The notes under the pieces were generated by a model, which had not been told where the DNA came from, ran no database searches, and saw only the letters and a list, made by a program, of their open reading frames with translations. This document shows positions 6,667 through 30,242 of a stretch of 32,000 nucleotides of DNA, one piece after another (the first letter of the stretch is position 1; the number at the start of each line of letters is the position of its first letter). The position numbers and the translations under genes are program-made. Source of the stretch: Thermoproteus tenax Kra 1 (GTDB taxonomy: Archaea; Thermoproteota; Thermoprotei; Thermoproteales; Thermoproteaceae); contig NC_016070.1 in the NCBI RefSeq assembly GCF_000253055.1, positions 540,001-572,000 of the forward strand, read 5' to 3'.

Positions 6667-6684
6667 GAAAAAGGTTGTAGTTAA

Positions 6685-7323: not shown

Positions 7324-7449
7324 ATATCGATATATCGCCAACAATGAAATATCTTATTACATCGAAAAGAGAAATAGCGAAATATTATAAATTTTAATAT
7401 AATTATCATATTTTATTTTTTAAGCTTATAAAGTAATATTTTACATTAT

Positions 7450-8868: not shown

Positions 8869-8884
8869 GATGAAGTCTCCGACC

Positions 8885-8897
8885 AAAAATATTAAAT
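8885..8897. promoter_or_regulatory. single AT-rich TATA-like box (AAAAATATTAAAT) shared by divergent thiI and PEBP genes
   Basis: The box is centred about 23 nt from GTG 8868 (minus strand) and about 24 nt from ATG 8915 (plus strand). It is the only AT-rich element in the 46-bp spacer. Confidence 0.5.
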
Positions 8898-8914
8898 CGC
8901 TTATTAGACCGGGC

Positions 8915-16194: not shown

Positions 16195-18285
16195 TTAGTT
16201 TCCTGCTACTAGGACACCCAGCTTTTTGGCCACCTCGCCGTCCAAACTCCTTAACAAATCTCTATTTCCAACCATATGATAGTAGTCAGTTATACCGCCT
16301 GCACCCATAGCCAGCTTTAGTTCTTTAGTCAAACTATATATAGTATTTTCATACCATTTTCTTTTCACAGCGTAGCTACCTGCGGGCCTCTTGTGGATTT
16401 GGTCGAAGACTTCATAGGGCTCTACCAGATCAGCGCCTAGCGCGGCCATCTTATAGACGTCTGCGCCGTTGTTCAATTTGCCCACCGCTATTATCGTCAT
16501 CCTCTCTCTAACGCCCGTCTCTCTAGCCCTTATGTCCAACATAGAGACAGCCTCCTCGAGCCAAACATCGCCTCCCAACCTCTCGTCGACCACTATGACT
16601 CCCTCCTCGGGCTCCAGCCTCTTCGTGGGCGGGACTCTCACGTGGTCGTAGTCGTTTAGACAGTATCCGCGCTCCGGGCATCCGTTGCCGTTCACCAGAG
16701 CGCCGGCGGCGTAGCCGGCCATCACAGCCGCCCTCTCATAGCCGGGCACCACTACGGGCGTGTCTAACTCAAACCCATTTATATATACCTTAGTTCTCAC
16801 GTCCTCTCTGTACGGATCAACGGAGGGATGTGTCACTTGGGCCGCCTCAATCCTCAAGAGGTCCAGAGGTCTCCTCGCCGGATATGTGTAGCCGGGCACT
16901 ATCCCGCCCATGCCTATTACCGGCGCTGCGCCCTCCTCGTAGACCTCTCTGGGCAGAACTGGGGCGTAGTCCTGATAGAAGGCCAATTGCCCCCTCTCCA
17001 TTAGATCGACGCCCACAGTCTTGGCCACGTCTTCATCAACGTAGTAGATCCCCAATAAATCCCTTCTGGACACCAACTCTCTTACGCTGTTCATCCCTAG
17101 GGCATACAATATGGCCTTCAGGCCGTTCCTCAGCCCCCTCAGATAGTTGCGCAACGCCTCGGAGGCCCATGCAATGTCCAAGTCGGGCCTCATACCTATC
17201 ATATTAGTGAGGGAGGTCGGGCACCCGCCCGTATGGCATGAGTGGCACATGATACAGCCCATCGCCAGAAGGGCAGCCGTGCCTATGTTGGCCATATCGG
17301 CGCCGAGCGCTATCAGCTTCGCTATGTCCGCTGCGCTGTATAACATTCCGCCGCCTATCACTAAGAAGTTCTGCCTCGCTCCGTTCTCCCTAAGCCACTT
17401 GTCCACTACAGGTATCGCGTAGTCGATTGGTATCCCCAAGTGGTTTCTGACTGCAAGCGGCGTGGCGCCAGTGCCGGCACCTGCGCCGTCGATAATGATG
17501 CCCTCGGCAGTGGACCTGGCGGTACCCACAGCGACGTACATTATCTTGTTCACCGCCGCGACCTTCACGAGGACCGGCTTGCCGGTGAGATCTCTCAAGG
17601 CCTTGACCCTCTGTGCTAGATCCTCTATGGAGTATATGTCGTGATGCGGCGCAGGCGATAGGGCCTCGCTGCCCTCCGGTATCTTCCTCAGCTCGGCGAT
17701 TATCTTAGTGACTTTTCTGCCCGGCAGATGGCCGCCTATGCCTGGCTTTGCGCCTTGGCCTATCTTGATGTTGACGGCGAGCCCGGCCCTCAGCAAGTTC
17801 ATGTCCATGCCGAAGCGGGCTGAGGCCCACTGAACCACTATGTTCCTATACTTGGCGACCTCGGGATGGAGACCTCCCTCGCCTATTCCAGCCACGACTC
17901 CCTCCTCTGTCGCCGCCTTGGCTATAGCTATGTTCGGATTGCCGCTTAAAGCGCCGAAGGACATATCGCCGAGATACACAGGGAGGGAGAGCTTTGTGCC
18001 GAAGAAATCTATGCCAACGTCGACATCGAGCCTATCGGCGACCTTCACGAGCTCGTTGACATCTCTAGGCCTCAGATCCTTGAACGCCATTCTGTCTAAA
18101 AGCCGACCGGTCTTGGAGGGTCCCTCCTCCAGCGCGTAGGGCACTAAACCTGTCTGAGCCGCATATCTTACGTATTCTATCTTCTCGTGAGACCAAAACT
18201 CAGCTATTCTATGTATCGCCGGGCGCAAATATATATTAACCTGGCGCACTATATATGTTATCGACGAAATATATAAGCTTAACAT
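16195..18285 (-). CDS. GltB-like glutamate synthase FMN-binding (domain 2, COG0069) protein with an extra C-terminal degenerate barrel-like half
   Basis: Motifs present are LPVYLGDMSFGALS, IKIGQGAKPGIGGHLPG, SPAPHHDIYSIEDL and IIIDGAGAGTGATP. The Cys cluster is GCIMCHSCHTGGCP. The 696-aa length compares with roughly 450-500 aa for single-domain relatives. The ATG at 18285 has TTTAAAG about 29 nt upstream. Confidence 0.8.
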   Translation of the reverse strand: MLSLYISSITYIVRQVNIYLRPAIHRIAEFWSHEKIEYVRYAAQTGLVPYALEEGPSKTGRLLDRMAFKDLRPRDVNELVKVADRLDVDVGIDFFGTKLSLPVYLGDMSFGALSGNPNIAIAKAATEEGVVAGIGEGGLHPEVAKYRNIVVQWASARFGMDMNLLRAGLAVNIKIGQGAKPGIGGHLPGRKVTKIIAELRKIPEGSEALSPAPHHDIYSIEDLAQRVKALRDLTGKPVLVKVAAVNKIMYVAVGTARSTAEGIIIDGAGAGTGATPLAVRNHLGIPIDYAIPVVDKWLRENGARQNFLVIGGGMLYSAADIAKLIALGADMANIGTAALLAMGCIMCHSCHTGGCPTSLTNMIGMRPDLDIAWASEALRNYLRGLRNGLKAILYALGMNSVRELVSRRDLLGIYYVDEDVAKTVGVDLMERGQLAFYQDYAPVLPREVYEEGAAPVIGMGGIVPGYTYPARRPLDLLRIEAAQVTHPSVDPYREDVRTKVYINGFELDTPVVVPGYERAAVMAGYAAGALVNGNGCPERGYCLNDYDHVRVPPTKRLEPEEGVIVVDERLGGDVWLEEAVSMLDIRARETGVRERMTIIAVGKLNNGADVYKMAALGADLVEPYEVFDQIHKRPAGSYAVKRKWYENTIYSLTKELKLAMGAGGITDYYHMVGNRDLLRSLDGEVAKKLGVLVAGN

Positions 18286-18295
18286 TAGGCAGATG

Positions 18296-18305
18296 CCTAT
18301 ATAGG
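18296..18305. promoter_or_regulatory. perfect 10-bp palindrome CCTATATAGG between the TATA-like box and the start codon of the GltB-FMN gene
   Basis: I read this directly from the sequence. It lies 11-20 nt upstream of ATG 18285 and contains the GCCTAT core seen in other nitrogen-gene promoters in this window. Confidence 0.4.
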
Positions 18306-18347
18306 ATTCGTTTAAAGCAATATATCAATCAATTTGTTTTTGATGAG

Positions 18348-18368
18348 CTTATTAAGCTTCTTATTAAG
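18348..18368. promoter_or_regulatory. two tandem copies of the 9-bp palindrome CTTATTAAG with a 12-bp period; the first copy extends to the 13-bp palindrome AGCTTATTAAGCT
   Basis: I read this directly from the sequence (18348-18356 and 18360-18368). It lies 63-83 bp upstream of ATG 18285 inside an AT-rich spacer. Confidence 0.35.
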
Positions 18369-18439
18369 AAATCCATTTAATTTTATAATCTAATATAAGG
18401 TAGACTTGCTCTATTAATTTAATGTCGCACCGATATCCT

Positions 18440-20113
18440 CTATCTTTTAGGTTTTATGATAGTAAATATATCATTTTCTATTTTTATATTTTCATTAAAT
18501 ATTTCATTGAATCTTTTTATATAATAATTAAGTTTATTTAGTTCATCTTCATTGAGCTCCCTTTGTTCAATCTCTATTTCGTCCTCGCGTCTGCGTTCCT
18601 CTTTCAGCCCATCTAGTTCAAGCGACCTAAGGTAGCGCTCCCACGCCCTTCTATCCATGTGGCTTACGGCATCTCTCGGCACCTCGCCTCTTATAAAGAT
18701 CTCGCCGCCGACCATGCCTCTAGCTATCATGTCCCCTACAGGCTCGTCGTTCGTGGCCCTCAAGACGATTATAGTTCCTCTGCCCATGTACTCACCCAAG
18801 TATTTCCCGGCGGAGCCCCCTATAACGACCGTGGCTCCTCTCAACTGGATGCCCGCCCTGTTGCCCGCGTCCCCATAGACGTAGATCTCCCCGCCTCTAG
18901 CCGCTTGGCCTAATGTGTCTCCCGCGTTCCCATAGACGGCGGCCAGACCTCCGTTCATCGCGTCGCCGAAGTCGTCTTGTACGTCGCCGTAGACGTAGAA
19001 GAGGCCCCCCGACATTACGTTGGCTGAGGCGTTGCCCACAGTCCCCCACACCCTAAGAATCCCCGACTCCATGCCGTTGCCCAAATATCGATGTCCGTTG
19101 ACGTTGACCACTGAGACTTCGCCCCTTTTGGCCAACTCGGCTCTAACGATAGATGCCAACGATATTGCGTCGTAGAGAGATGCGTCTATGGCGTCTTGAG
19201 GTGGCTGAGGCAAGTCTGGGTAGATATACCTTCGTCTGAAGTTTCCCTTCAGCTCGTCGCCCTCAGCGATAATGTATTCTCCCCCTCTCAGTGCCCAGAC
19301 TGATGCGGAGGGCATGACGGCCCTAATGGCGCCAATCTCAGAGGCCACGGCGAGGACGCCGTCGGCTACGCCGACATACAGCGGTCTGAAGTGGTTCGGG
19401 TCCACGAACGCGCCAAATATGGGCTTAGATCCGCCTACGATGAAGGCCACGGCGTAGGGGCCGTCGAGCCGCGCCCATCGGTACCTCCTTCCGTACATTA
19501 GCTCTTGGACTGCCTCCTCGATGCCCACCTCGTTGGCCAAATAGGCCAACAGATACGCTATGGCCTCGCTATCGTTGCCAGTGAACTTGGCGTGCATTCT
19601 GTATTTAATGAAGTTGACGTTTGCGCCGTAGCTGCTTAGATCTCCGTTGTGAACTATCGCCACGTCACCTGCGGCAAACGGGTGGGAGTAGTATGGCATT
19701 CTGCCGGGACTGTTGGTTGGATAGCGCGTATGACCTATCCAGATCTTGCTTTTGAGCCCGTCCACTCCGTAGATTCTCGGGATGTCCTCCGGCCACCCTA
19801 CTACTTTATATATGTCTATCCATTTACTATTTAGATAAATATATCCCTCTATATCCTTATATTCGTTGAGCTCTACATCAAAAATATTGCCTGGAAGTTG
19901 TATAAATTTCTCGCCTATAGGTTTATAGGAAAAAGCCTTGATGCGGGGTCTATCGGAGGGTCTATAGAGGGCAACGCCGGCGCCATGCGGCGTACCCCTC
20001 TCCCTCATTGTGGCGAGGGCCCTCACCACGAGCTCTATCGGCACCTCAGATGAAGTCGAATAGATTCCAAATATGCCGCACATGAGCGCTCCATATAGCC
20101 TATATAAAAGCAT
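18440..20113 (-). CDS. fusion of a class-II (PurF/GlmS-like) glutamine amidotransferase domain with a GltB C-terminal GXGXG beta-helix domain
   Basis: The MCGIFGIY nucleophile context and IGHTRYPTNS and VHNGDL blocks mark the amidotransferase domain. GXGXG-type repeats follow: GNASANVMSGGLFYVYGDVQDDFGDAMNGGLAAVYGNAGDTLGQAARGGEIYVYGDAGNRAG...GSAGKYLGEYMGRGTIIVL. The mature N-terminus needs Cys. Either ATG 20083 (MCGIF) is the start, or 20113 is the start and a 10-residue propeptide is removed. Confidence 0.8.
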   Translation of the reverse strand: MLLYRLYGALMCGIFGIYSTSSEVPIELVVRALATMRERGTPHGAGVALYRPSDRPRIKAFSYKPIGEKFIQLPGNIFDVELNEYKDIEGYIYLNSKWIDIYKVVGWPEDIPRIYGVDGLKSKIWIGHTRYPTNSPGRMPYYSHPFAAGDVAIVHNGDLSSYGANVNFIKYRMHAKFTGNDSEAIAYLLAYLANEVGIEEAVQELMYGRRYRWARLDGPYAVAFIVGGSKPIFGAFVDPNHFRPLYVGVADGVLAVASEIGAIRAVMPSASVWALRGGEYIIAEGDELKGNFRRRYIYPDLPQPPQDAIDASLYDAISLASIVRAELAKRGEVSVVNVNGHRYLGNGMESGILRVWGTVGNASANVMSGGLFYVYGDVQDDFGDAMNGGLAAVYGNAGDTLGQAARGGEIYVYGDAGNRAGIQLRGATVVIGGSAGKYLGEYMGRGTIIVLRATNDEPVGDMIARGMVGGEIFIRGEVPRDAVSHMDRRAWERYLRSLELDGLKEERRREDEIEIEQRELNEDELNKLNYYIKRFNEIFNENIKIENDIFTIIKPKR

Positions 20114-20182
20114 TTCATCATATATATTTCATAAAACTGGCGTGCGAGACAACACATTTATACAAATAAGACTTTTGTAAAA

Positions 20183-20656
20183 GTGTTTGGAGGCCGAGGA
20201 AGGGGATATTATAAGGCCATTGTATTATATCTACTCTCGTCGGGGCCCTTAAGCGGCTACGAGATAATTAAGGCGATAGAGAACGCGTTCAAGGGCAAGG
20301 TAAAGCCTTCGCCGGGCACAATTTACCCCCTTCTAAAATATCTGGAGGAGGAGGGCTACATAACCTCGGAGGAACAGCCCGTGGGAAGGAAAAGGAAGAA
20401 GATCTATAGGTTGAACGAGAAGGGGAAGGAGCTATTAGCTCAATACTCCAACGACCCAGATTTTGTCCAACTCATGGCCTATTTTAAGGAGGGGGGCACA
20501 GCCCAGTTGGACATTATATCTTCTATAATCGAGGAAGTGAGGTTCCTCTCCGAGATCTTCGACGAGCTGGAGACGCACGATAGGGCGAGACTTCAGGAGC
20601 TCCACGCGACAGTGGCCGAGTTCTTAGAAAAAATAGCGAGACGCCTTGCGTCATAA
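20183..20656 (+). CDS. PadR-family winged-helix transcriptional regulator
   Basis: The wHTH pattern is LLSSGPLSGYEIIKAIENAF...PSPGTIYPLLKYLEEEGYITSEE...GRKRKKIYRLNEKG. The GTG start has CATTTATAC about 25 nt upstream. Confidence 0.85.
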   Translation: MFGGRGRGYYKAIVLYLLSSGPLSGYEIIKAIENAFKGKVKPSPGTIYPLLKYLEEEGYITSEEQPVGRKRKKIYRLNEKGKELLAQYSNDPDFVQLMAYFKEGGTAQLDIISSIIEEVRFLSEIFDELETHDRARLQELHATVAEFLEKIARRLAS

Positions 20657-20688
20657 AACTTAAATATATCGATATATCTATTCGCTCT

Positions 20689-22818
20689 ATGAATAAAGCG
20701 TGGTCGTTCGCGATAGTAGCGCTCCTCCTTCTCTTGGCACAGACCGAGGCCGCGGGCGTTATCCCGGTCTATATAGGCATCAGCGTACTCCAGGCTCCGC
20801 CTATAGCGCGCCCGGGCTCTCTAGTCCAACTTACCATCCTTATAACTACCACATCGCCTATGGGGCCTGTAGAGGTGATCGTGAACTCGACTAAGCTCCT
20901 CGTCTTGACCGGAGGTCGATACGAGCTGGCCGGCTTAGCTCCAGGTCAGCCCATCCGACTGACCTCTGTAGTAGAAGTCCCCATAGGCGTGGGCCCCGGC
21001 TCCTATAATGTGACAGTCTCCTTAGTGAGCCCGGCCGGCGGCCGGACGATCCGGAGCTTCAACTACACTGTAACGGTGGAGCCGCTCGACTTCGGCGCGC
21101 TGGTCGTCCCCGTCGTTAGACAGCCTCTTGTCCCAGGACAGCCCGTAGAGCTCCCAGTGTTGCTGTTCAACCCCACGCCTGACGCCATGAAGGCATATGT
21201 GGACGTCGTAGGGGGCCCCTTCGCGCAATACCTCAACGCTTCTGCGTCTTGCTCCTCCTACGTCCCCCCATTCTCCAACTCCACTTGTGTTATTCCCCTA
21301 GTGGTTAAGCCCAACGCTTCCTCAGGCGTCTACGTGGCTCAAGCGAATGTAACTTACGTTGATCAAAATGACGGGTCGGCGGTCGCATTCGCTAAGAAGT
21401 TCAACGTGACAGTGCTTCCGCCCCCAGACTTCAACCTGGCGCTTCTGCCGAACGGCGCCGTGATCGTAGGCCAGCCCACTATCTTGACTCTGGCCGTTTC
21501 AGCGTCGGGCGCCGTACCTCCTACAAACGTCACCATTATACCGCTCAATACGACCGACATCCATTTCGTCTTCAACGAGGTTAAAATGCCCATTTTGACC
21601 ACGGCACAGATACCGTTGGAGGCCTTCGTGGAGCACTACGGCACAGTAAAAGCCGACTTTGAGATCTGTTATTTTGTAGGCTCCTGCACAACGAGGGAGG
21701 TCACCTTGTTTGTACCGCAGCCAGACGTTGCTGTCGACGTCTTCGCCAACCCGCCTCTCTCATACCCAGGCTCGATAGTCCAGTTGAACATCGTCGTCTC
21801 GGCGAATAGGCCAACGGGGCCTATCACGATCAGTGTGAACTCCTCATATCTCAAGATACTTGAGGGAGCGATGGCCGAGCTACCTGGGTTAGCCCCCGGC
21901 GCGCCAGCGACGATAACCGCCGTTGTAAAGGTGCCCGACCAAACAACTCCGGGGGACTATCCAATTACCATGCAAGTTGGGGACGAAGAGTACACCTATC
22001 TGGTCCACGTAGAATCTCCGAGCGTCTTGATACAGAGCGTCCTCATAGAGCCTCCGGTAGTAGTGTCGGAGAGTCTGTTGCCCTATGTAAAGGCCATTGT
22101 CTCCTTAGTCAACACCGGCGTTGTACCCGCGCGCGATGTAGTGGTGCAGCTGAGCGGGGTCCCGGTCGTCGGGAACTCCACTGTGCCTCTCGGCGTGTTG
22201 CCGCCCGGCCAGCCTGTCCAGATACCGTTCCTCCTTAACGTCACTGGCTTAAGCCCCGGCGAGGTCGAGCTGAGGGCCGACGTCAGATGGCTCGGCGGCG
22301 CGGCAACGGCCAGCGCGCCGCTCACTGTGTTGCCCAAGGCCGATTTAGAGGTCAATTACACTGCTGCGAACGCACAGCCGGGTTCAACGGCTATAGTGAC
22401 TATCACTCTGACCAACAGAGGGCCGGTGGCTGCCAAAATGGTCTCACTCCAGTGGACGCCCAACCAGATCTTCCAGCTCCACACGCCCAGTTCTGCTACG
22501 CCTACTGCCAACCTGTTGGAGTCAAACGTCAGATTCTTGGGCGACATAGCGCCTGGGCAGAGCGTCTCTACTACATATCTCGTTGACGTCTCTAGCGATG
22601 TGCCCGCCGGAGTCTACTACGCGACTATAGTAATAGAGTGGAACGAGACGGGGGCTCTATATCCGGTTGTAGAGACTGTGACAATACCTATACGAGTGAG
22701 CCAGACCGTCAACTGGCTAGAGGTGGGACCTCTGGCGCTTGCCTTGCTCATAGCAATAGTCGGCGTCGCTCTGATCATCAGAAGGAGATCGGGGCATAGC
22801 AATAAGTCCCAGCCTTAA
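20689..22818 (+). CDS. large secreted, C-terminally membrane-anchored surface protein built of CARDB/Ig-like beta-sandwich repeats (COG1361-like)
   Basis: The signal peptide is MNKAWSFAIVALLLLLAQTEAAG and the C-terminal TM helix with basic tail is LALALLIAIVGVALIIRRRSG. At least 6 repeats carry the (L/I)xPGxxxxxxxxVxVPxxxxxGxY pattern. By my count there are about 15 N-x-S/T sequons. Confidence 0.75.
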   Translation: MNKAWSFAIVALLLLLAQTEAAGVIPVYIGISVLQAPPIARPGSLVQLTILITTTSPMGPVEVIVNSTKLLVLTGGRYELAGLAPGQPIRLTSVVEVPIGVGPGSYNVTVSLVSPAGGRTIRSFNYTVTVEPLDFGALVVPVVRQPLVPGQPVELPVLLFNPTPDAMKAYVDVVGGPFAQYLNASASCSSYVPPFSNSTCVIPLVVKPNASSGVYVAQANVTYVDQNDGSAVAFAKKFNVTVLPPPDFNLALLPNGAVIVGQPTILTLAVSASGAVPPTNVTIIPLNTTDIHFVFNEVKMPILTTAQIPLEAFVEHYGTVKADFEICYFVGSCTTREVTLFVPQPDVAVDVFANPPLSYPGSIVQLNIVVSANRPTGPITISVNSSYLKILEGAMAELPGLAPGAPATITAVVKVPDQTTPGDYPITMQVGDEEYTYLVHVESPSVLIQSVLIEPPVVVSESLLPYVKAIVSLVNTGVVPARDVVVQLSGVPVVGNSTVPLGVLPPGQPVQIPFLLNVTGLSPGEVELRADVRWLGGAATASAPLTVLPKADLEVNYTAANAQPGSTAIVTITLTNRGPVAAKMVSLQWTPNQIFQLHTPSSATPTANLLESNVRFLGDIAPGQSVSTTYLVDVSSDVPAGVYYATIVIEWNETGALYPVVETVTIPIRVSQTVNWLEVGPLALALLIAIVGVALIIRRRSGHSNKSQP
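20794..21024 (+). repeat. internal repeat A (77 codons) of the surface protein
   Basis: It aligns without gaps to 21748-21978 (APPIARPGSLVQLTI...LAPGQP...VVEVP..GPGSY against NPPLSYPGSIVQLNI...LAPGAP...VVKVP..TPGDY). I counted about 35 of 77 identical residues by hand. Confidence 0.7.
21748..21978 (+). repeat. internal repeat B (77 codons) of the surface protein
   Basis: See repeat A for the gapless hand alignment. Confidence 0.7.
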
Positions 22819-22850
22819 TAGATCTCATAAATCTAGATAGATTCTCCTGC

Positions 22851-23267
22851 GTGTTCGTATCTCTTGAAGATATCCTAGAGAGAGTTAAGGCAAAAACATT
22901 AAAAGAGGGGGCTCCATGCGCGCCCGGTAATATAGACATTGTGTTGTCCGACGATCTCTATCTTTCGGGCAACACAGCGGTTCTCAAAACGCCGGAGGGG
23001 CACAGATGTTTAGATATCGGCATTCTCTCGGAGGGTATACAGTCCGTTGCGTATCTCAGAATAGTTAAACAAGCACAGTTCAAGACTCTGGAGCCGCCCT
23101 ACGTCGAGATATCTGGCGATGAGGACAGATATCTGGTCCTGGGGGTCTACAATAACAAGGTCTATATGGCTGAGTGGTCGGGGATCAGGTTGTGTTGCTC
23201 ATGGATTGTCGATATAAGTTTAGATGAATATAAAAAATCATATGAAATATTAAAAACATATATATGA
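22851..23267 (+). CDS. hypothetical 138-aa protein with four cysteines including a CC pair
   Basis: The GTG start has CTCATAAATC about 23 nt upstream. The stop overlaps the next ATG (ATGA at 23264-23267). I recognise no family. The cysteines sit in APCAPG, HRCLD and RLCCSW. Confidence 0.55.
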   Translation: MFVSLEDILERVKAKTLKEGAPCAPGNIDIVLSDDLYLSGNTAVLKTPEGHRCLDIGILSEGIQSVAYLRIVKQAQFKTLEPPYVEISGDEDRYLVLGVYNNKVYMAEWSGIRLCCSWIVDISLDEYKKSYEILKTYI

Positions 23268-23836
23268 TATTTCAATCAATATTTGAAAAATTTAATCTCA
23301 ATATCAATGATAAGGAGATGGCCATATTGGCGTCCATTTTGGCCAACGAGCCCGTGACGGCGTACAAAATAGCCGTAGAGAATAGGATGCATTTCTCCTA
23401 CGTCTACAAGAAGGTTGAAAGTTTCGAGAAAGCAGAGCTCGTGGGCTATTACTGTGAGCCCTACGATGGAAGAAAACTGTACTACTTACTCCCCAAGGGC
23501 GTAATACTATTGTTGGGACACGAAAGGCCGGAGAGGCTCTATATTGATAAGCTGAGGGATAAGTGGCACTTGAAAGATTGGGGAGATCAGGAGATAATCG
23601 ACTTAGTCAATATAATTATTAGACACTATAGGCCGGGCATGCCCATAAACGACATTGTCATGGTCGCCTACGCGTTGTATACCAGATATCTAGCGGGTGA
23701 TATAGCCGTCGGAGATCGCGAAAGGGGCGTGCTCAACAAGCTGTTCAGAAGATCGTTCGAGGCTCTCGTAAGCCTCATAAGCTATGATTGTCTGGAAAAG
23801 TGTAAAGGGAGGCTGGCGAGTAGAGAGTATATATGA
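23264..23836 (+). CDS. hypothetical protein with N-terminal winged-helix (MarR/TrmB-like) DNA-binding domain
   Basis: KEMAILASILANEPVTAYKIAVENRMHFSYVYKKVESFEKAELVGYY...GRKLYYLLPKG fits a helix-turn-helix plus wing. ATGA overlaps occur at both ends of the gene (23264, 23833). Confidence 0.55.
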   Translation: MIFQSIFEKFNLNINDKEMAILASILANEPVTAYKIAVENRMHFSYVYKKVESFEKAELVGYYCEPYDGRKLYYLLPKGVILLLGHERPERLYIDKLRDKWHLKDWGDQEIIDLVNIIIRHYRPGMPINDIVMVAYALYTRYLAGDIAVGDRERGVLNKLFRRSFEALVSLISYDCLEKCKGRLASREYI

Positions 23837-24168
23837 CCTCGATTAAGTGCCCGGGCGAATACCGCGTAGGCAACGCAACCGTATCTCTGGACGAGTGGTG
23901 TTTTCTGAGAGATCCTCTCTCATGGAACGAGGAGGTAGCCGAGTGGCTTGCCGAAAACCTAGAGGGAATTCGCCTCACTGAGGCGCACTGGCGCGTCTTG
24001 AGATACCTCAGGTCCTACTGGGAGAAGTATGGCTTCTGCCCTCCGGTGAAGAGGCTCTTGATGGATTTGGGGGTGACCTTCAAGGATTTATACGACCTCT
24101 TTCCGTCGGGCCCAGCCGATGGCGCCTGCAAAATAGCAGGCTTGCCCCGGCCGGGAGGTTGCGTATAG
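23833..24168 (+). CDS. dsrC: DsrC/TusE family sulfur-relay protein with both C-terminal cysteines
   Basis: The 111-aa protein shows the family pattern ...W.EEVAEWLAE..GI.LTEAHW.VLRYLR.YW...G..PP.... The C-terminal arm is DGACKIAGLPRPGGCV, with CysB 11 residues before the penultimate CysA. Confidence 0.9.
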   Translation: MTSIKCPGEYRVGNATVSLDEWCFLRDPLSWNEEVAEWLAENLEGIRLTEAHWRVLRYLRSYWEKYGFCPPVKRLLMDLGVTFKDLYDLFPSGPADGACKIAGLPRPGGCV

Positions 24169-24265
24169 TATCGGATCGCCGCAAGGCGGGGCTATAGCCA
24201 AATCGGCGTTCCCTCTTAGTTTCAACGTCAAACTGCAATTTAAATACACGGTACTATCTACCCCC

Positions 24266-24694
24266 ATGAGCGCTGAGGAGAGAATCTTCAGAGCTTTGTC
24301 AGATCCACAGAAACAGGAGGCTTTGGCCGCTTTGTTGGAGAATATCGATGTAATAAAGGACCTCGTCGCTCTTCTGGCCGAACTTAAGAACGCCGGCGTA
24401 CTTGAGGGCTTGGCCGGCCTCCTGGCCCTCATGAGGGCCTTTTCCGGAGATCTATTGGGCAGAGATGTGGCAGAGAAGGCCGCCAAGATGTTAGACCTTG
24501 CCTCAGCTTTCTCCCTCCTTGGCGCAAACGTGAACAATGTGGCGTGTCTCTCGAGGGCTGTGGCCGAGGCTGACGCCTCAAATCCAGCGGGGATATACAG
24601 CCTTGTCAACTCTCTACAAGACCCAGACGTGCAGAGAGGGCTAGGCTACTTCCTCTCATTTATGAAGGCCTTGGGCAAGTGTATCAGGGGCTAA
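24266..24694 (+). CDS. DUF1641-like helical protein (orphan copy)
   Basis: The C-terminal motif LQDPDVQRGLGYFLSFMKALG and an N-terminal Leu-rich helical region are shared with the ORF at 29640-30242. CAATTTAAATAC lies about 25 nt upstream of the ATG. Confidence 0.6.
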   Translation: MSAEERIFRALSDPQKQEALAALLENIDVIKDLVALLAELKNAGVLEGLAGLLALMRAFSGDLLGRDVAEKAAKMLDLASAFSLLGANVNNVACLSRAVAEADASNPAGIYSLVNSLQDPDVQRGLGYFLSFMKALGKCIRG

Positions 24695-24723
24695 CACTAT
24701 TAAACTCGTAGTTTGAGTAGGCC

Positions 24724-25017
24724 GTGTCAGAGTTTCGAACTCCCGGCGAGGGCGAGATGTTGGGGAAAGTTTTGGAGATGTTGGGAGATAACAGAGTTAA
24801 GGTAATATGCCAGGATGGAAACGTGAGAGTGGCGAGGATACCGGGCCGTTATAGAAAGAGGCTGTGGCTTAAGCCCGGCGACTACGTGATAGTCGCCGTC
24901 TGGGACTTCGACCCGAACAAGGGGGATGTGGTACACAAATATGAGAAGAGGGATATCGATGAATTGAGGAGGAGGGGCTACGGAGAGGTCATCGATAATT
25001 TGGATAAGCTCGCCTAG
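24724..25017 (+). CDS. eif1a: translation initiation factor aIF-1A
   Basis: The S1/OB-type eIF1A pattern is GEMLGKVLEMLGDNRVKVICQDGNVRVARIPGRYRKRLWLKPGDYVIVAVWDFDPNKGDVVHKY. The start codon is GTG. Confidence 0.9.
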   Translation: MSEFRTPGEGEMLGKVLEMLGDNRVKVICQDGNVRVARIPGRYRKRLWLKPGDYVIVAVWDFDPNKGDVVHKYEKRDIDELRRRGYGEVIDNLDKLA

Positions 25018-26420
25018 GGGGCATAGACGTACGGTATCTGGAGCATCTCGGCCACATCTCTATCTAGTGAGGCCACGTCCTCGGGGCCTACGTCGGCCAC
25101 GTCGTATTTGCCCAATGCAGATGTCAACATTTGTATCTCCACCCTGAGAGACTCTATGTAGTTCTCAACTCCCTTCGAGCCGCGCGCCAGCGCGGCTATC
25201 AAGAAGGGGCGCGCCATATAGACTGCCGAGGCGCCGAGGGCCAAGCTCTTGACGACGTGGCCTCCGTCGTAGAGCCTCCCCGCTATCAAAAGCGATATCT
25301 TTCTGCCCTCGGCCCTCGCTTTTCTTATTATCTTGAGGCCGACCAAAGTGGGGTACCCCAGATCTTTCATAGCCGCGGTGGGGGCCATACCTGTGCCCCC
25401 CTCCTTTCCATCGATTACGACGGCCGAGGCGCCTTCCTCGTCGGCGATCCTTATTACGTCCAAGGCGTCGCGGAACGGCCCCAGCTTTATCCATATCCTC
25501 GCCCTTGGATAGGCCGTCTTCATGAATCTGATAGTCCCAGCCAGGATCTCGGCGGTGAATGTGCCAGGTACAGAGTATCTTGTTATGAACTTTTTGCCAA
25601 GCTCAGACTCGTCGAATTTGTACTTGGCCCTAAGCTTCTCCACTTGCTCCCTCGGTATCTTTATAACGCCGCCGAGTCCCGGCTTCGCCCCCTGCCCTAT
25701 CTTTATCTCGAAGCCTATCCTGCCCTCCTCAATGTAGGGCTCCACGTCCTTGTCGCTGTACACCCTGTTCCACAGTTCATCGTAGGCGTCCTCCACGCTC
25801 TGCTGTATTATTATGCCGCCTCTCTTGTCGATATTCGTCAAATACGCCATGAGCCTTTCCTTAAACGCAGGGTGGCCCCTCGTCGCCCTCTTGGCATATC
25901 CTCTGACTGTGGCCACGTTTTCCCCTATCGCGTAGACAATGCCCGCCTTGGCAGCCGCCTTGGCTATATCTATAGCTGTCTTGCTCGCTATATGGGTCGA
26001 TCCCATAGATCCCACAGCTACCGGCAAGGACGATATGAACCCGCCTATCTCGCTCTCAGTCCTCACGTCCATAAAGATGGGCTCCCTTAAGAGCTCGGCC
26101 GCCTTCTCCAACCTCTTGGGGGTAAATGCAGGCGGCATAAGCACTACTGTGTCCAGCGTCTTGAAACGGGGGGTACCCTTGTAGAAGGCCCCGGCGCCTA
26201 ACACGGCGGAGCCATACGACGATAAGAGGCCGAAGGGGTAAACCGACTCCTTGCCTCTCAAGGCTCTATATGCTATCTCTCCTACGGGATAGTCGGAGAG
26301 AAACTCCTTCACGCCTCTGAAGAGGTAGGTAAGGCCCTTGAACAGAACGGCCAGTCTAGCCGGCAACATCGCCTCCGCCATTGTCGCTGTTTTTATCCAT
26401 ACTCCGGCAAATTTTCGCAT
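25014..26420 (-). CDS. divergent GltB-like FMN-binding (COG0069) family protein, third paralogue in the window
   Basis: It shares IKIGQGAKPGLGG, VVIDGKEGGTGMAP and LIAGRLYDGGHVVKSLALGASAV with GltB domain 2. It has YSVPGTFTAE where the 16195-18285 protein has SPAPHHDIYSIE, and it has no Cys-rich segment after the barrel. Confidence 0.75.
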   Translation of the reverse strand: MRKFAGVWIKTATMAEAMLPARLAVLFKGLTYLFRGVKEFLSDYPVGEIAYRALRGKESVYPFGLLSSYGSAVLGAGAFYKGTPRFKTLDTVVLMPPAFTPKRLEKAAELLREPIFMDVRTESEIGGFISSLPVAVGSMGSTHIASKTAIDIAKAAAKAGIVYAIGENVATVRGYAKRATRGHPAFKERLMAYLTNIDKRGGIIIQQSVEDAYDELWNRVYSDKDVEPYIEEGRIGFEIKIGQGAKPGLGGVIKIPREQVEKLRAKYKFDESELGKKFITRYSVPGTFTAEILAGTIRFMKTAYPRARIWIKLGPFRDALDVIRIADEEGASAVVIDGKEGGTGMAPTAAMKDLGYPTLVGLKIIRKARAEGRKISLLIAGRLYDGGHVVKSLALGASAVYMARPFLIAALARGSKGVENYIESLRVEIQMLTSALGKYDVADVGPEDVASLDRDVAEMLQIPYVYAP

Positions 26421-26421
26421 A

Positions 26422-26458
26422 AATGGCCGTAATATGATAATATTTTTGCAGATAGGCC
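26422..26458. promoter_or_regulatory. promoter box 1: AATGGCC, then a 22-nt AT-rich TATA region, then GATAGGCC, directly upstream of the minus-strand ATG at 26420
   Basis: I read this directly from the sequence. On the gene strand it reads GGCCTATC-N22-GGCCATTT-ATG. Confidence 0.45.
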
Positions 26459-26623
26459 AGCAATTTAGAGTATTTATTTCATTTTATCCCTTGTAAAGAT
26501 GGTTAATTTCCTTATCGCCTACATGTTTTTTGTTTTTATTTCGCCACTATTTTCGGTAAAATTGCCAGCATATTCCGTGCTGTGAAAGAAAGAAAATGAG
26601 TTTAACTACGGATTTATTGGTAT

Positions 26624-26664
26624 AATGGCCTATCATTATTTAATAATATCACTTGGGATAGGCC
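26624..26664. promoter_or_regulatory. promoter box 2: an 8-bp inverted repeat GGCCTATC (26627-26634) / GATAGGCC (26657-26664) bracketing a 22-nt AT-rich TATA region, 2 nt upstream of ATG 26667
   Basis: I read this directly from the sequence. It has the same architecture as box 1, so it is a candidate operator overlapping the promoter. Confidence 0.45.
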
Positions 26665-26666
26665 CC

Positions 26667-27716
26667 ATGCCCTACGTTCACCCCGCCGTCCTTGAGTTTG
26701 AGAAAATGGTTTCAGACAAAGAGGCCTACCGCAGACAACTGGAGGAGTGGGTTAAGTACTCATGGCGGTGGGCCCGCAACGATAAATACAAGCTGGTATT
26801 CCGGGTACAAGCGTCAGCGTTGAGAGCCATGAGGGAGTTCTTGGACTCGAAGGGCTTCGTAGAGGTCCTGTCGCCGATAGTGGGGCCCGTCACAGATCCC
26901 GGGATTAGAGGCGCCAAACAGGCCACAATAGATTTCTATGGCGCTGAATACAAAGTGATGTCCTCCGCTATACTGTACAAACAGTACATGGCCGCCTCAC
27001 TGGGCAAGATATATTTCGTCAGCCCCAACATACGCCTTGAACCCAACGACAGCATCTATACAGGCAGACACTTAGTTGAGTTCTATCAGCTGGATCTCGA
27101 GATGTACAAGGCCTCATATGTCGACGCAATGGATCTAGCCGAGGAGCTTGTGGCGTATACAGTCAAGTACATAAAGGATGTCCACGGAAAGGAGCTCGAA
27201 GAAAAGCTGGGGAGACAACTGCCTGAGTTCAAGAGGCCCTTCAAGAGATACAGCCACAGAGAGGCGATAGAGTACGTCAATAAACTCGGCTGTAAGAATC
27301 CGCCTAGGGAGGAGCTCATGTGGGAGTGCGAAAAAATCATGTCGTCCTATCACGACTCGCCGTTCTTTGTGTACGACTACCCGAGGGGCGCAAGAGGCTT
27401 CTATGATAGAGAGGATCCCGAGAGGCCCGGGATTCTCCGCGACTTCGATATGCTTTACCCCGAGGGCTTCGGCGAGGCTATCAGCGGCGCCGAGAGGGAG
27501 TTCGAGCCCGCCAAGTTGGTCGCAAGGATAAGAGAGATGGGCGAGGATCCCATGAAGTACTCTTGGTTCCTCCAGATGGCTAAGGAGCTGTACCCTCTAC
27601 AGACCGCGGGGTTCGGCATAGGCGTGGAGAGGTTGACGAGATATCTGTGCGGCCTTAGGGCGGTCTGGGAGGCCCGGCCCTACCCGAAGGTGGCCGGAAT
27701 AGTCGGAGGGCCCTAA
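26667..27716 (+). CDS. class-II aminoacyl-tRNA-synthetase catalytic-core paralogue without anticodon-binding domain (AsnA-like / archaeal asparagine synthetase A-like)
   Basis: Motif 1 is GFVEVLSPIV, motif 2 is IRLEPNDSIYTGRHLVEFYQLDLEM and motif 3 is GFGIGVERLTRYLCG. Only about 45 residues precede the core, which leaves no room for an OB-fold. I prefer ATG 26667 over track start 26625 on promoter spacing. Confidence 0.7.
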   Translation: MPYVHPAVLEFEKMVSDKEAYRRQLEEWVKYSWRWARNDKYKLVFRVQASALRAMREFLDSKGFVEVLSPIVGPVTDPGIRGAKQATIDFYGAEYKVMSSAILYKQYMAASLGKIYFVSPNIRLEPNDSIYTGRHLVEFYQLDLEMYKASYVDAMDLAEELVAYTVKYIKDVHGKELEEKLGRQLPEFKRPFKRYSHREAIEYVNKLGCKNPPREELMWECEKIMSSYHDSPFFVYDYPRGARGFYDREDPERPGILRDFDMLYPEGFGEAISGAEREFEPAKLVARIREMGEDPMKYSWFLQMAKELYPLQTAGFGIGVERLTRYLCGLRAVWEARPYPKVAGIVGGP

Positions 27717-27732: not shown

Positions 27733-28140
27733 TTAGATAAACAGGACCTGGCCGCCCTTAGCTTGTTCTAAGAAGGTGGTGACGCCTACTACATCGTCGA
27801 CGAGCGTTGGGTCGAAGTCCTCCTTCTTCAGACCTGCGGCCTCGGCCATCATCGAACAGACGTATACTTTGGCGCCCATAGACTTCGCTTGTTTTAACAT
27901 GTCCTTCCAGCTGGGAGCCTTGAGGCGGGCCATCCCCTCCTTAAGTTTCGGAACCATGCCCTCAAACTCCTTGGGCCACACCTCGCCCATCGGCTGCTTG
28001 AGCAATTTGAACATGGCCCATCCAGTGAAGAATATGTATACCTCATAGCCCAAAGCGGCGGCCGCCTGAGATATTACTCCTACTGGTATCATTTTATCGT
28101 CGGTGCCCGTAAACACTATCATTGAAATTTTGTCTGCCAT
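27733..28140 (-). CDS. DsrE/DsrF-like family sulfurtransferase (DsrE3/COG2210-like)
   Basis: The 135-aa protein has MIVFTGTDDKMIPVGVISQAAAALGYEVYIFFTGWA, the conserved Cys context AKVYVCSMMAEAAG, and the C-terminal GGQVLFI. I place the start at ATG 28140 (MADKISM). Confidence 0.75.
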   Translation of the reverse strand: MADKISMIVFTGTDDKMIPVGVISQAAAALGYEVYIFFTGWAMFKLLKQPMGEVWPKEFEGMVPKLKEGMARLKAPSWKDMLKQAKSMGAKVYVCSMMAEAAGLKKEDFDPTLVDDVVGVTTFLEQAKGGQVLFI

Positions 28141-28172
28141 GAGTTTGTTGAACAAAATTCCTATTTCTACTC

Positions 28173-28193
28173 TATTACATGAAAAATGTAATA
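28173..28193. promoter_or_regulatory. inverted repeat TATTACAT-gaaaa-ATGTAATA in the dsrE/tusA divergent spacer
   Basis: The repeat has perfect 8-bp arms (28173-28180 and 28186-28193), read directly from the sequence. It lies just upstream of the GCTTTATTGG box that precedes ATG 28224. Confidence 0.4.
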
Positions 28194-28223
28194 AGAGCTT
28201 TATTGGGACTGGCCCTAGCTCCT

Positions 28224-28463
28224 ATGAGCGAGGGCCGAATCAAAGTCGACGCAAGGGGCATCGCGTGTCCTGGGCCTATAACGGAGCTCGTCAAGGCGTA
28301 CCGAAACGCGAAAAACGGAGATATAATTGAGGTATGGGCCACCGATCCCGGCTTCAAGCCCGACGTAGAGGCTTGGATTAAGAGGACTGGGAATCGGCTC
28401 CTCGAGCTCAGACAGGAAGGCAACGCCATAGTGGCCGTTATCAAGGTGACCGCCAAGAAATGA
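28224..28463 (+). CDS. tusA: TusA/SirA family sulfur carrier
   Basis: The CPxP motif is in DARGIACPGPITELVKAY and is followed by GDIIEVWATDPGFKPDVEAWIKRTGN. A start at ATG 28224 gives a typical 79-aa length. The track start at 28179 lies inside the inverted repeat. The stop overlaps the next ATG (ATGA, 28460-28463). Confidence 0.85.
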   Translation: MSEGRIKVDARGIACPGPITELVKAYRNAKNGDIIEVWATDPGFKPDVEAWIKRTGNRLLELRQEGNAIVAVIKVTAKK

Positions 28464-29647
28464 ACAAGAAGAGGGTCGTCATAGTGGGAGGCGGAGCTGG
28501 AGGGGCCATTGCGGCGAATAACTTGCCTACCAATGAATTCGACGTAGTTGTCGTAGATAAAAACGCCTATCATTACTATTGGCCTTGGCTATTATATATA
28601 GCTTTCAAGGGCTCCAAGAGGCCTATCAAAAAAGAAATAAGAGAGCTGTTGAGACCCAAAGTCTCCTTCATCCAGAGCTCTGTCACAACGATAGATCTGA
28701 ACGAAAGGCGCGTCGTCCTAGAGGGCGGCAAGGCGTTGAGCTACGACTACTTGATAGTCGCCACGGGGTCCTATCCAAATTACCAGCTCATCGGCGGGCA
28801 CGAGAAAGTAGCTGAGAAGTACGGAGACTACCATTCAACGGAGGGACGCGCTTGGGCCGTGTGGAATACTATCAACTCTCTTAGGAGGGGTACTCTGGCC
28901 ATCGTGGTCGGCGGAGATCCGTACAGGTGCCCCCCATCGCCGTTGGAGGGCGTCTTTCTGTCCGAGGAGTTCTTCAGAAGGAGGGGGCTCCAAGATATAG
29001 TGGATATAATATTCGCCGTCCCCTACCCGCGCCCCTACCCAGCTGAGCCCATGAACGAGGTGGTGGAGCCCATTCTGAAAGAGCGAGGGATCGATTACAG
29101 GACCTTTTTTACGTTGGACAGGATCGATGACGAGAGAAAGGTCGCCGTCTCCATGGAGGGCGAGGAGTTGAAATATGATGCGTTGATCGTAATTCCGCCG
29201 CACGTGGGCGCAGATATAAAGTATAGGCCTGAGGACGTTTTGACGCCCGATAGATTTGTCCAAGCCGATAAATTTACTAACAATATAAAGGGCTTCGACG
29301 ATGCGTTCGTAATAGGGGATGCGTCGGCGGTGCCTGTGGCCAAGACTGGTGTGACGGCCCATCTTCAGGCAACTGTAGTCGCCCAACGACTACAGGGCAT
29401 TGACGCGAGGAACACCGGCCGTACAAACTGTCCATTCGATCTGGGCTACGGCCTGGGCGCTTTCGTTATCAGCGACTACAACCACCCGGTGGTCAAGCTG
29501 CCGCCGTCTCGCTTCTCCCACTTGGCCAAGATGGCGTTCGCGGCCGCCTACTGGGATATGGTGAAGTATCCCGAGCTTTGGAACCCTATATTCGACGCCT
29601 ACTTTGAGGCCACCGAGCCGGAGAAGTTGGGTAGAATCTATGTCTGA
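28460..29647 (+). CDS. sulfide:quinone oxidoreductase-like FAD flavoprotein (pyridine nucleotide-disulfide oxidoreductase superfamily)
   Basis: Motifs present are KRVVIVGGGAGGAIAA, YDYLIVATGS and FVIGDASAVPVAKTG. There are only two Cys, in SQR-like contexts: DPYRCPPSPLEG (compare ..SCFGPAYE in SQR) and TNCPFDLGYGLGAFV. Confidence 0.75.
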   Translation: MNKKRVVIVGGGAGGAIAANNLPTNEFDVVVVDKNAYHYYWPWLLYIAFKGSKRPIKKEIRELLRPKVSFIQSSVTTIDLNERRVVLEGGKALSYDYLIVATGSYPNYQLIGGHEKVAEKYGDYHSTEGRAWAVWNTINSLRRGTLAIVVGGDPYRCPPSPLEGVFLSEEFFRRRGLQDIVDIIFAVPYPRPYPAEPMNEVVEPILKERGIDYRTFFTLDRIDDERKVAVSMEGEELKYDALIVIPPHVGADIKYRPEDVLTPDRFVQADKFTNNIKGFDDAFVIGDASAVPVAKTGVTAHLQATVVAQRLQGIDARNTGRTNCPFDLGYGLGAFVISDYNHPVVKLPPSRFSHLAKMAFAAAYWDMVKYPELWNPIFDAYFEATEPEKLGRIYV

Positions 29648-30242
29648 GCTCGACGTATTAGCCGCCCAGAACTTGAGCAAAGTGTTAAGCCCTGAGTCTC
29701 TGGGCGCGTTGGCCAAGTTCCTAAACATCCTTGTGAAGGCGGACAAAATAGGCTTGTTGGACACAATTAACGATCTCTTGGACGAATCGGTGACGGCGGA
29801 ATCGGCGCGGGCCCTCTTGACTACGGGCGTCTTTTCCGCCATGTTCAACTTTGAGAGGATATCCTCCCTCTTGGAGTCTCTATCCAAAAACGCCGAAGCT
29901 CTGGAGAGGGGCCTCAAGTTCATTGAGGCTCTGGACAGACTCGGGCTATTACAGAGTCTCGGCGATCTAGCCGATGAAGAGGTCGTAGGCGAGGCGGCAA
30001 GGGCGTTCTTGAACACCGGATCGTTCTATGTCTTAAACGAGATGCCCAAGATCCTCGATATATTTGCCAAGCTCAGGCTCTCCCACGCCCTCGAAAGCGC
30101 CGCGAGTGAGGTATCAGACGAGCCTCCCCCCTCGGCCGTAAACATCGTCTCACAACTGTTGTTAGACGAGGACGTGCGCAGGGGCCTTGCGTTCGTCATA
30201 AAAGTAGCGAGGGAAATAGGCGTCTCTCTGAGGGCTAAATAG
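29640..30242 (+). CDS. DUF1641-like protein with repeated helical units, translationally coupled to the SQR-like gene
   Basis: The ATG overlaps the upstream stop (ATGTCTGA, 29640-29647). Leu-rich units are LAKFLNILVKADKIGLLDTINDLLDE and LKFIEALDRLGLLQSLGDLADEE. The C-terminal LLDEDVRRGLAFVIKVAREIG matches the motif of 24266-24694. Confidence 0.6.
   Translation: MSELDVLAAQNLSKVLSPESLGALAKFLNILVKADKIGLLDTINDLLDESVTAESARALLTTGVFSAMFNFERISSLLESLSKNAEALERGLKFIEALDRLGLLQSLGDLADEEVVGEAARAFLNTGSFYVLNEMPKILDIFAKLRLSHALESAASEVSDEPPPSAVNIVSQLLLDEDVRRGLAFVIKVAREIGVSLRAK

Follow-up and report, generated by a model that had tools for sequence, protein, structure and literature searches.

Why does Thermoproteus tenax Kra1 carry a gene for the sulfur carrier DsrC that overlaps two uncharacterised genes instead of adjoining the sulfite reductase genes dsrAB? 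The question is raised by TTX_0632, TTX_0633 and TTX_0634, which together occupy genome positions 562851-564168. They lie in the 32,000-nucleotide stretch analysed here (genome positions 540001-572000, hereafter the window). Positions below are those of the window, and the genome coordinate is the window position plus 540000. For annotation we used the gene table of the T. tenax Kra1 genome paper (PMC3189178, supplementary file 10), with which the coordinates of the three genes agree. That table lists TTX_0632 as arCOG04014, uncharacterised, with Pcal_1450 as its best match, and TTX_0633 as arCOG00747, a "predicted transcriptional regulator", with Pcal_1447 as its best match (PMC3189178). The gene calls are therefore already published, with TTX_0632 and TTX_0633 annotated only as hypothetical. 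Full-text literature searches found no papers discussing the locus tags or arCOG numbers of the trio, and exact-product look-ups for TTX_0632 and TTX_0633 returned no record. What is new here is a DsrC-centred module with two uncharacterised, lineage-restricted partner families. Gene order links both families to Dsr sulfur metabolism, and we propose, tentatively, that the trio has a regulatory role.

A translationally coupled cassette

All three genes are on the plus strand. The first open reading frame (ORF1; TTX_0632, 22851..23267) starts with GTG and encodes 138 amino acids of the family arCOG04014. The second (ORF2; TTX_0633, 23264..23836) encodes 190 amino acids of arCOG00747, and the DsrC paralogue TTX_0634 (23833..24168) has 111 amino acids. 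A first-pass annotation, made from the letters of the window alone, had described the three as chained by ATGA overlaps of start and stop codons, and both overlaps are present, at 23264-23267 between ORF1 and ORF2 and at 23833-23836 between ORF2 and the dsrC gene. Our comparison within the genus covered six Thermoproteus species, T. tenax included. The annotated order in T. tenax is TTX_0630 (PadR), TTX_0631 (S-layer-domain protein), TTX_0632, TTX_0633, TTX_0634 (dsrC), TTX_0635 (COG2427/DUF1641) and TTX_0636 (aIF1A) (PMC3189178), and all recovered Thermoproteus loci share it. In all six species both junctions retain the 4-base overlap, which is ATGA except for one GTGA. Protein identity to T. 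tenax is 46-50% for ORF1, 55-59% for ORF2 and 60-66% for DsrC, against 80-91% for aIF1A. That the overlaps survive at 46-66% protein identity is more than chance.

The promoter region of the cassette (22814..22833, plus strand) contains CTTAATAG at 22814-22821, which overlaps the stop codon of the S-layer gene, and CATAAATC within a TATA-like box at 22824-22833, at -27 to -18 from the GTG of ORF1. In the other Thermoproteus loci a CTTAATA or CTTTTAAA box lies about 17-28 nucleotides (mostly 20-28) before the ORF1 start, and the TATA-like box first proposed from the T. tenax sequence sits where these boxes lie. By analogy with general crenarchaeal promoter geometry, the cassette transcript is probably near-leaderless. 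A separate TTTAAATA box (24239..24246, plus strand) is found 20-27 nucleotides upstream of the DUF1641 gene TTX_0635. A box of this type precedes the DUF1641 gene at the same distance in all six species, and it marks where the three-gene transcription unit ends on its 3' side. Because the overlaps, the ORF1 box and the separate DUF1641 box have been kept despite low protein identity, we regard the cassette as a discrete three-gene unit. The palindromes AGATCT and ATCTAGAT upstream of T. tenax ORF1 were considered as operators and rejected, as they are not conserved.

The guanine-plus-cytosine (GC) content falls to 0.38 in 23100-23399, compared with 0.54-0.60 in the flanks. Averaged over the genes, it is 0.44-0.45 in T. 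tenax ORF1 and ORF2 and 0.57 in the flanks. Gene by gene, the five other species have at most a slight dip. The AT-rich junction at 23210-23330, which had been pointed out at the outset, is therefore real but largely a peculiarity of T. tenax and not a conserved feature. At third codon positions the GC content is 0.49 in ORF1 and 0.58 in ORF2 against 0.63-0.70 in the neighbours; this too is confined to T. tenax, and the orthologues elsewhere are normal.

A third, divergent DsrC

Membership of TTX_0634 in the DsrC/TusE family, called unambiguous in the first-pass annotation, is secure. The protein matches the Pfam family DsrC (PF04358) with an expectation value (E) of 1.6e-29 and 102.9 bits (cutoff 24.9) and TIGR03342 with 101.9 bits (cutoff 53.5), and its best solved structure is the Pyrobaculum aerophilum DsrC 1JI8 (E 1e-43). 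The arm cysteines C99 and C110 (C-x10-C), in ACKIAGLPRPGGCV, align with those of 1JI8, 1SAU and 2XSJ, and both are kept in all seven cassette orthologues in which we compared the arm. The narrower claim that TTX_0634 is of the dissimilatory type stands only in part. The two arm cysteines and the failed TusE equivalog agree with it, but neither the arm motif nor linkage to dsrAB or dsrMK does. The TTX_0634 arm is PRPGGCV and departs from the near-invariant (A/L)PKPTGCV motif of dissimilatory-type DsrC. Within the cassette clade the arms are PRPGGCV, PRPGGCS, PRPGGCI, PRPTGC-stop and SRPLSC-stop, with two sister species ending at the cysteine, while PKPTGCV is invariant in all of the dsr-linked Pyrobaculum, L033 and L050 copies and the bacterial copies compared (L033 and L050 being two of the loci retrieved). 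No dsrAB or dsrMK was found in the 32-kb window.

The genome table contains three arCOG04486 (DsrC) genes, each of 336 bp. TTX_1185 belongs to a dsrK/dsrM-dsrA-dsrB-dsrG-dsrC cluster (dsrABCGK are named at TTX_1185-1191; PMC3189178), and TTX_0415 to a second island with two dsrAB pairs. Their best Pyrobaculum matches score 234 and 237 bits respectively, compared with 162 bits for TTX_0634. Between the genera, therefore, the dsr-linked copies have scarcely changed, in contrast to the divergent cassette copy. Neighbour joining groups the cassette DsrCs in a long-branched clade of their own, and TTX_0634 is both divergent and fast-evolving. Its closest relatives outside Thermoproteus (60-61% identity) are DsrCs inside dsrMK-dsrAB clusters, including those of Pyrobaculum. 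A genome scan with the DsrC query returned mostly Latescibacterota and no Pyrobaculum loci. The description of the two partner genes as standing in place of dsrAB, dsrMK or tusBCD was misleading, since the canonical DsrCs of this organism, TTX_0415 and TTX_1185, adjoin dsrAB and TTX_0634 is a third paralogue. From the retained cysteines and the relaxed arm we infer that TTX_0634 has kept the thiol chemistry of the family but has been freed from the constraint of docking into DsrAB.

The partner families in dsr islands of related archaea

Using hmmsearch, we found ORF1-like and ORF2-like genes adjacent or one gene apart in every fetched locus that contains either of them. Apart from the Thermoproteus cassette itself (ORF1, ORF2, DsrC), the relatives occur in three further arrangements at 24-35% identity; those of ORF2 have BLASTP E values of 5e-13, 8e-10 and 1e-6. 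In the second island of T. tenax (TTX_0414-0420) the order is TusA (TTX_0414), DsrC (TTX_0415), ORF2-like (TTX_0416), an 87-amino-acid gene, ORF1-like (TTX_0418, our P0089), DUF1641 (TTX_0419) and HcaD (TTX_0420), followed by two dsrAB pairs. In Pyrobaculum calidifontis (Pcal_1447-1451) a TusA gene is separated by a 7-nucleotide gap from the ORF1-like Pcal_1450 (P0088/P0094), which is followed by an ORF2-like gene, and the group adjoins dsrBA (Pcal_1445/1446). The locus L050 (P0090) contains aprBA, dsrAB, an ORF2-like gene, a 164-amino-acid gene, an ORF1-like gene, dsrM, dsrC, DsrE and a second dsrAB-like pair.

Across four gene orders, then, the pair has remained together and close to TusA or DsrC, which is the strongest evidence for a shared function. 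A functional link of the partner families to Dsr sulfur metabolism is well supported by this recurrence. Because they recur in the dsr islands of related archaea, both families would be uncharacterised parts of that sulfur metabolism. The first-pass annotation had named separation of the three genes in related genomes as evidence that would count against it; linkage was instead found to hold well beyond the genus.

ORF1, a cysteine-conserving protein of unassigned fold

ORF1 is a cytoplasmic alpha/beta protein whose four cysteines, C23, C53, C115 and C116, are all invariant in the Thermoproteus orthologues. It has no match in Pfam, NCBIfam, PHROGs or PADLOC. Among 5.8 billion proteins it forms four clusters, the named members of which are all from Thermoproteus. 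Its profile, run against 1.84 billion representatives, found six true relatives of 140-151 amino acids, and every named relative is from Thermoproteus or Pyrobaculum. The profile recovers the Pcal_1450 cluster (E 6e-23) and the TTX_0418 cluster (E 3e-17), as expected of arCOG04014. No member of that family seems to be present in Vulcanisaeta and Caldivirga. The earlier verdict that this four-cysteine protein could not be assigned to any family thus holds for Pfam, the PDB and Foldseek, where it has no kin, but not for arCOG04014, to which it belongs and which is itself uncharacterised. A metagenome scan with the ORF1 alignment returned only Thermoproteus-type loci. The orthologue on metagenome contig L049 (5959-6430) is frameshifted near the conserved YMxEWSGIRLCCSW motif, which reflects a sequencing error or else a pseudogene carried by one population. 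The weakest match of the profile, the 1223-amino-acid protein P0093 (E 2e-6), aligns in four stretches with query residues 23-59 and has recurring "GYTCDN" units; this match is most likely compositional or spurious.

An alignment of ten family members has 11 invariant positions: G20, C23, L36, C53, P82, P83, E86, V104, E108, C116 and L134. Three of the 11 are cysteines. The fourth cysteine is C115 in the cassette clade, and in the Pyrobaculum/island clade its counterparts are C118 and the cysteine of a PDC motif near position 70.

The AlphaFold2 model of ORF1, made from an alignment of only four sequences, has a predicted local distance difference test score (pLDDT) of 90.1 and a predicted template modelling score (pTM) of 0.83. 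Its topology is helix, four strands, helix, five strands, helix. Foldseek searches of the PDB and BFVD gave no match at E<=0.001, the best having E 0.01-0.03 and a template modelling (TM) score of about 0.25. The family profile found nothing among PDB sequences at E<=10, and the ten members gave a single spurious match to Pfam at E<=5. The fold of ORF1 is thus predicted with confidence but is without known relatives. Whirly-like, lipocalin, sliding-clamp and profilin folds were left unused, all having TM scores <0.3, and a Whirly/PUR-like fold was rejected, with Pur-alpha, MRP1/2 and SsgB appearing only at E 0.03-0.4 and a TM score of about 0.25. The label SMI1/KNR4 (SUKH), which UniRef attaches to the P. 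aerophilum homologue P0107, was not adopted: none of the ten members matches its Pfam families at E<=5, and it is absent from the Foldseek top 50. Kinship with the 147/163-amino-acid family found after dsrB (discussed below), with the 164-amino-acid protein of L050 (L050_164), with the 87-amino-acid arCOG04015 protein or with L033_301 was likewise rejected, the hhalign probability being <1% in each case.

ORF2, a predicted winged-helix protein

Profile searches, structure prediction and Foldseek had been proposed as checks on both partner proteins; where ORF1 remained without a significant match, ORF2 came out as probably MarR-like. It is predicted to consist of an N-terminal winged helix (about residues 11-76) and a helical C-terminal domain, and its model (pLDDT 85.8) shows the winged helix followed by about six helices. 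Foldseek matches it to MarR-family regulators with a probability of 1.0, E 2.5e-3 and TM scores of 0.38 (query) to 0.57 (target), in the N-terminal half only, and almost all of the top 50 are MarR-type DNA-binding regulators. Sequence matches are weak, with E 0.08 to MsvR and weak matches to the F-93 winged-helix domain and a phage regulator family. The paralogue TTX_0416 matches TrmB in precomputed Pfam. By its modelled fold, ORF2 is most likely a MarR/TrmB-like winged helix that falls below sequence thresholds. The winged-helix assignment made from the sequence alone thereby gains support, in line with a weak TrmB match and membership in arCOG00747.

Three cysteines of ORF2, C64, C176 and C180 (the last two forming a C-terminal CxxxC), are invariant in Thermoproteus, and the Pyrobaculum-type relatives end in CxxC-x5-C-x4/5-C. 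The protein forms eight clusters among the 5.8 billion, again with named members only from Thermoproteus. We considered and rejected its identity with DsrD, finding no match to PF08679 at E<=1 and no DsrD structure in the Foldseek top 50.

Neighbouring genes and further observations

The neighbour of the cassette, TTX_0635 (DUF1641/COG2427; 24266..24694, plus strand; PF07849, E 1.5e-17), has its own promoter. It is 39% identical to TTX_0419, which adjoins the ORF1-like TTX_0418. About 4 kb downstream of the cassette, and outside the operon, lies a sulfur-carrier module on mixed strands (27733..30242), made up of the DsrE-like TTX_0639 on the minus strand and TusA (TTX_0640), an HcaD-type flavoprotein (TTX_0641) and a COG2427 protein (TTX_0642) on the plus strand. 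Each of these families has a paralogue in the main island TTX_0408-0420, and the cassette and the downstream module together resemble a satellite group of paralogues of the island's accessory genes.

HcaD-type flavoproteins and COG2427/DUF1641 proteins recur around the dsrC loci of T. tenax. Both occur in the second island (TTX_0419/0420); TTX_0635 is beside the cassette with TTX_0641/0642 about 4 kb downstream, and TTX_1193 (COG2427 only) is near TTX_1185. The Pyrobaculum locus L035 has, at 6368-9376, dsrC, a winged-helix gene, Pyr_redox_2, DUF1641 and a second winged-helix gene. The recurrence suggests that the archaeal DsrC system has an NAD(P)H-linked partner, as yet uncharacterised. A separate family of 147-163 amino acids is encoded directly after dsrB in Pyrobaculum-type clusters (L035, 5514-5957; L050, 7961-8452, minus strand), the two members matching each other by BLASTP with E 1e-13. 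Judged by position alone, it may be arCOG04036, "dsrG, glutathione-S-transferase homolog" (TTX_1186, TTX_0422).

In the divergent promoter region between TTX_0639 (minus strand) and the TusA gene TTX_0640 (plus strand) there is a perfect palindrome, TTACAT-N5-ATGTAA, at 28175-28191; zero such sites are expected by chance in the window. All six Thermoproteus loci have an element of the form TATTACAT-N4-6-ATGTAATA in this position, that of locus L007 with one mismatch. The element probably serves a dimeric regulator as operator, candidate binders being TTX_0633, the GyrI-like TTX_0643 and PadR. Upstream of the PadR gene TTX_0630 (20083-20182) the blocks CTATATAAAAGCATT, CATATATAT and ACTTTGTAAAA, just before the start codon, are strongly conserved in all six species and probably represent the promoter and an autoregulatory site of the PadR/S-layer gene pair. 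The cassette as a whole is set inside a nitrogen-assimilation neighbourhood (16195-27716) that is conserved across Thermoproteus and includes GlnA, the glutamate-synthase sets TTX_0628/0629 and TTX_0637, and the asparagine synthetase A-like TTX_0638. A functional link between the two is not evident.

Comparison with known systems

Canonical DsrC (PF04358; 1JI8; the Desulfovibrio vulgaris DsrC in 2V4J) serves dissimilatory sulfite reductase as its gamma subunit and as a substrate protein. TTX_0634 shares with it the fold family, the length of 111 amino acids and the C-x10-C arm cysteines, and it is about 60% identical to the DsrCs of Pyrobaculum dsrMK-dsrAB clusters. It differs in being a third copy away from dsrAB and dsrMK, in its PRPGGCV arm, in its much faster evolution and in its translational coupling to two non-Dsr proteins.

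Winged-helix repressors that sense thiols or persulfides include those of the MarR/OhrR type, the archaeal MsvR and the bacterial CstR and SqrR. ORF2 resembles them in its predicted MarR-like fold with additional helices, in its conserved cysteines and in its place amid sulfur-metabolism genes. Unlike them, it is sub-threshold by sequence, its cysteines lie in a C-terminal CxxxC and off the known sensing positions, and it is co-encoded with a DsrC and a separate cysteine protein, which are possible sensor partners.

DsrD, which activates DsrAB allosterically in Archaeoglobus and in sulfate-reducing bacteria, is also a winged-helix protein, of about 78 amino acids, and ORF2-like genes directly follow dsrB in L050 and P. 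calidifontis. ORF2 has 190 amino acids and no DsrD Pfam match, and its structural neighbours are DNA-binding MarR proteins. Most Dsr-containing archaea are without DsrD, the minimal archaeal set being DsrABCMK(N) (PMC10504309).

The co-occurrence of TusA, DsrE-like and DsrC genes with the cassette families recalls the TusA-DsrE(FH)-DsrC relay of sulfur oxidisers. The arCOG04014 protein, in contrast, has no kinship with TusA or DsrE, either in sequence or in its predicted fold, and T. tenax is a sulfur and sulfate reducer.

A possible regulatory unit and its alternatives

We propose that the trio acts jointly as a thiol/persulfide-based regulatory unit, and put the probability of this reading at roughly 0.4. 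It builds on the observed gene structure, family memberships, paralogy and conserved coupling, and on the co-location of the families with TusA, DsrC, DUF1641 and dsrAB; complex formation, sulfur transfer, DNA binding and the target genes are the parts of it that we infer. TTX_0632-0634 would be a satellite duplicate of the accessory core found in the dsr island of the Thermoproteaceae, its three genes being transcribed together with a short leader and translated in a coupled manner. Instead of carrying bulk substrate for DsrAB, the DsrC paralogue would signal how far the cytoplasmic relay (TusA, DsrE, DsrAB) is loaded with sulfur, or what its redox state is. The arCOG04014 protein would exchange sulfur or a disulfide with the DsrC paralogue, and the winged-helix protein would then alter its DNA binding and adjust the transcription of sulfur-metabolism genes. 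Coupled translation with a regulator-type protein suggests regulator-like expression of this DsrC and not the abundance of a bulk carrier. A more specific form of the proposal we consider rather unlikely as it stands: that arCOG04014 is a new-fold cysteine protein complexed with the DsrC paralogue and the winged-helix regulator, that a persulfide or trisulfide on the DsrC arm is read out as transcription, and that the same pair of families does so inside the main Thermoproteus and Pyrobaculum dsr islands.

Several observations weigh against a regulatory unit. ORF2 matches TrmB with E 7e-4 and 19.8 bits, below the curated cutoff of 25.6, and has no MarR match in Pfam, while its paralogue TTX_0416 is without the C-terminal cysteine motif. 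No conserved operator was found upstream of ORF1 among the Thermoproteus cassette promoters compared, and the palindrome at 28175-28191 is absent from the cassette promoter and from the other loci that contain ORF2, namely those of Pyrobaculum and the islands. The cysteines of ORF1 may be structural, because the proteins of the Thermoproteaceae are rich in structural intracellular disulfides. Finally, all of the evidence comes from one archaeal family, so that some of the linkage could be inherited synteny.

It is possible, though doubtful, that the unit is accessory and not regulatory. The arCOG04014 protein would then transfer sulfur, or load or reduce DsrC, possibly with a metal or Fe-S center bound by its cysteines; the winged helix would bind protein, acting as DsrD does on DsrAB; and the DsrC paralogue would supply some other partner, for example the HcaD/DUF1641 flavoprotein or TusA/DsrE. 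The 7-nucleotide spacing of the ORF1-like gene directly after TusA in P. calidifontis favours this explanation. So does the position of ORF2-like genes after dsrB in L050 and P. calidifontis (Pcal_1445/1446 dsrBA, then Pcal_1447), which is that of bacterial dsrD (PMC10504309), and so do the genes for DUF1641 and HcaD-type flavoproteins that recur in Pyrobaculum L035 and around the three dsrC loci of T. tenax. Tight translational coupling would also suit a stoichiometric complex. But ORF2 is without similarity to DsrD, both in Pfam and among its almost wholly MarR-type structural neighbours, and ORF1 has no homology to known sulfurtransferase folds. With three cysteine positions invariant in ORF1 and the fourth moving (C115 versus C118 and C70), a fixed four-ligand metal site would also be unusual. 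We think it improbable that the three genes are neighbours by descent with no joint mechanism, ORF2 being an ordinary local autoregulator, ORF1 a lineage-specific protein with its cysteines in structural disulfides, and the DsrC redundant or decaying. Shared ancestry could explain much of the co-location, as both families are confined to Thermoproteus and Pyrobaculum, and the relaxed arm of a fast-evolving DsrC clade and the frameshifted orthologue on L049 point the same way. Yet order and orientation have been reshuffled four times while ORF1-like and ORF2-like genes stayed near each other and near TusA or DsrC. The 4-base overlaps have also been kept in six species, the cysteines of the DsrC arm, ORF1 and ORF2 are invariant across the genus, and shallow alignments of both partners give confident models.

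Two further explanations are very unlikely. Recent acquisition of ORF1 and ORF2, as an insert of mobile, viral or defence origin upstream of dsrC, is suggested by their low GC content in T. tenax (0.44-0.45 against 0.57) and by the weak matches of ORF2 to the F-93 winged helix and the phage regulator family. This idea is close to refuted. The other five species have at most a slight dip in GC content, and the two genes are at the same place in all Thermoproteus loci; ORF1 has no PADLOC or PHROG match, tblastn against 50,697 phage records found nothing, IMG/VR contains no relative, and homologues were found only in chromosomal dsr islands. The notion that TTX_0634 is a TusE-type carrier for tRNA 2-thiouridine synthesis is close to excluded, although some sources label its close relatives "tRNA 2-thiouridine synthesizing protein E" and TusA and DsrE-like genes are 4 kb away. 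It scores 57.9 bits against a cutoff of 191 for the NCBIfam equivalog NF008562, and it has two arm cysteines where TusE typically retains only the last. Neither tusBCD nor mnmA adjoins it, and its closest relatives are DsrCs inside dsrAB clusters.

Conclusions

Dissimilatory sulfite reduction depends on DsrC as its central carrier of sulfur and electrons, and the roles of extra DsrC copies and the control of dsr genes are poorly understood, notably in the deep-branching archaea. If the more specific form of our proposal is true, the trio would be a sulfur-status switch built on DsrC, and archaea are not known to use DsrC in regulation. As three soluble proteins of 111-190 amino acids, its members offer a tractable system for testing whether DsrC paralogues act as signals or as substrates. 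Within the scope of one archaeal family, the two partner families are a lead toward missing accessory components of the archaeal Dsr pathway.

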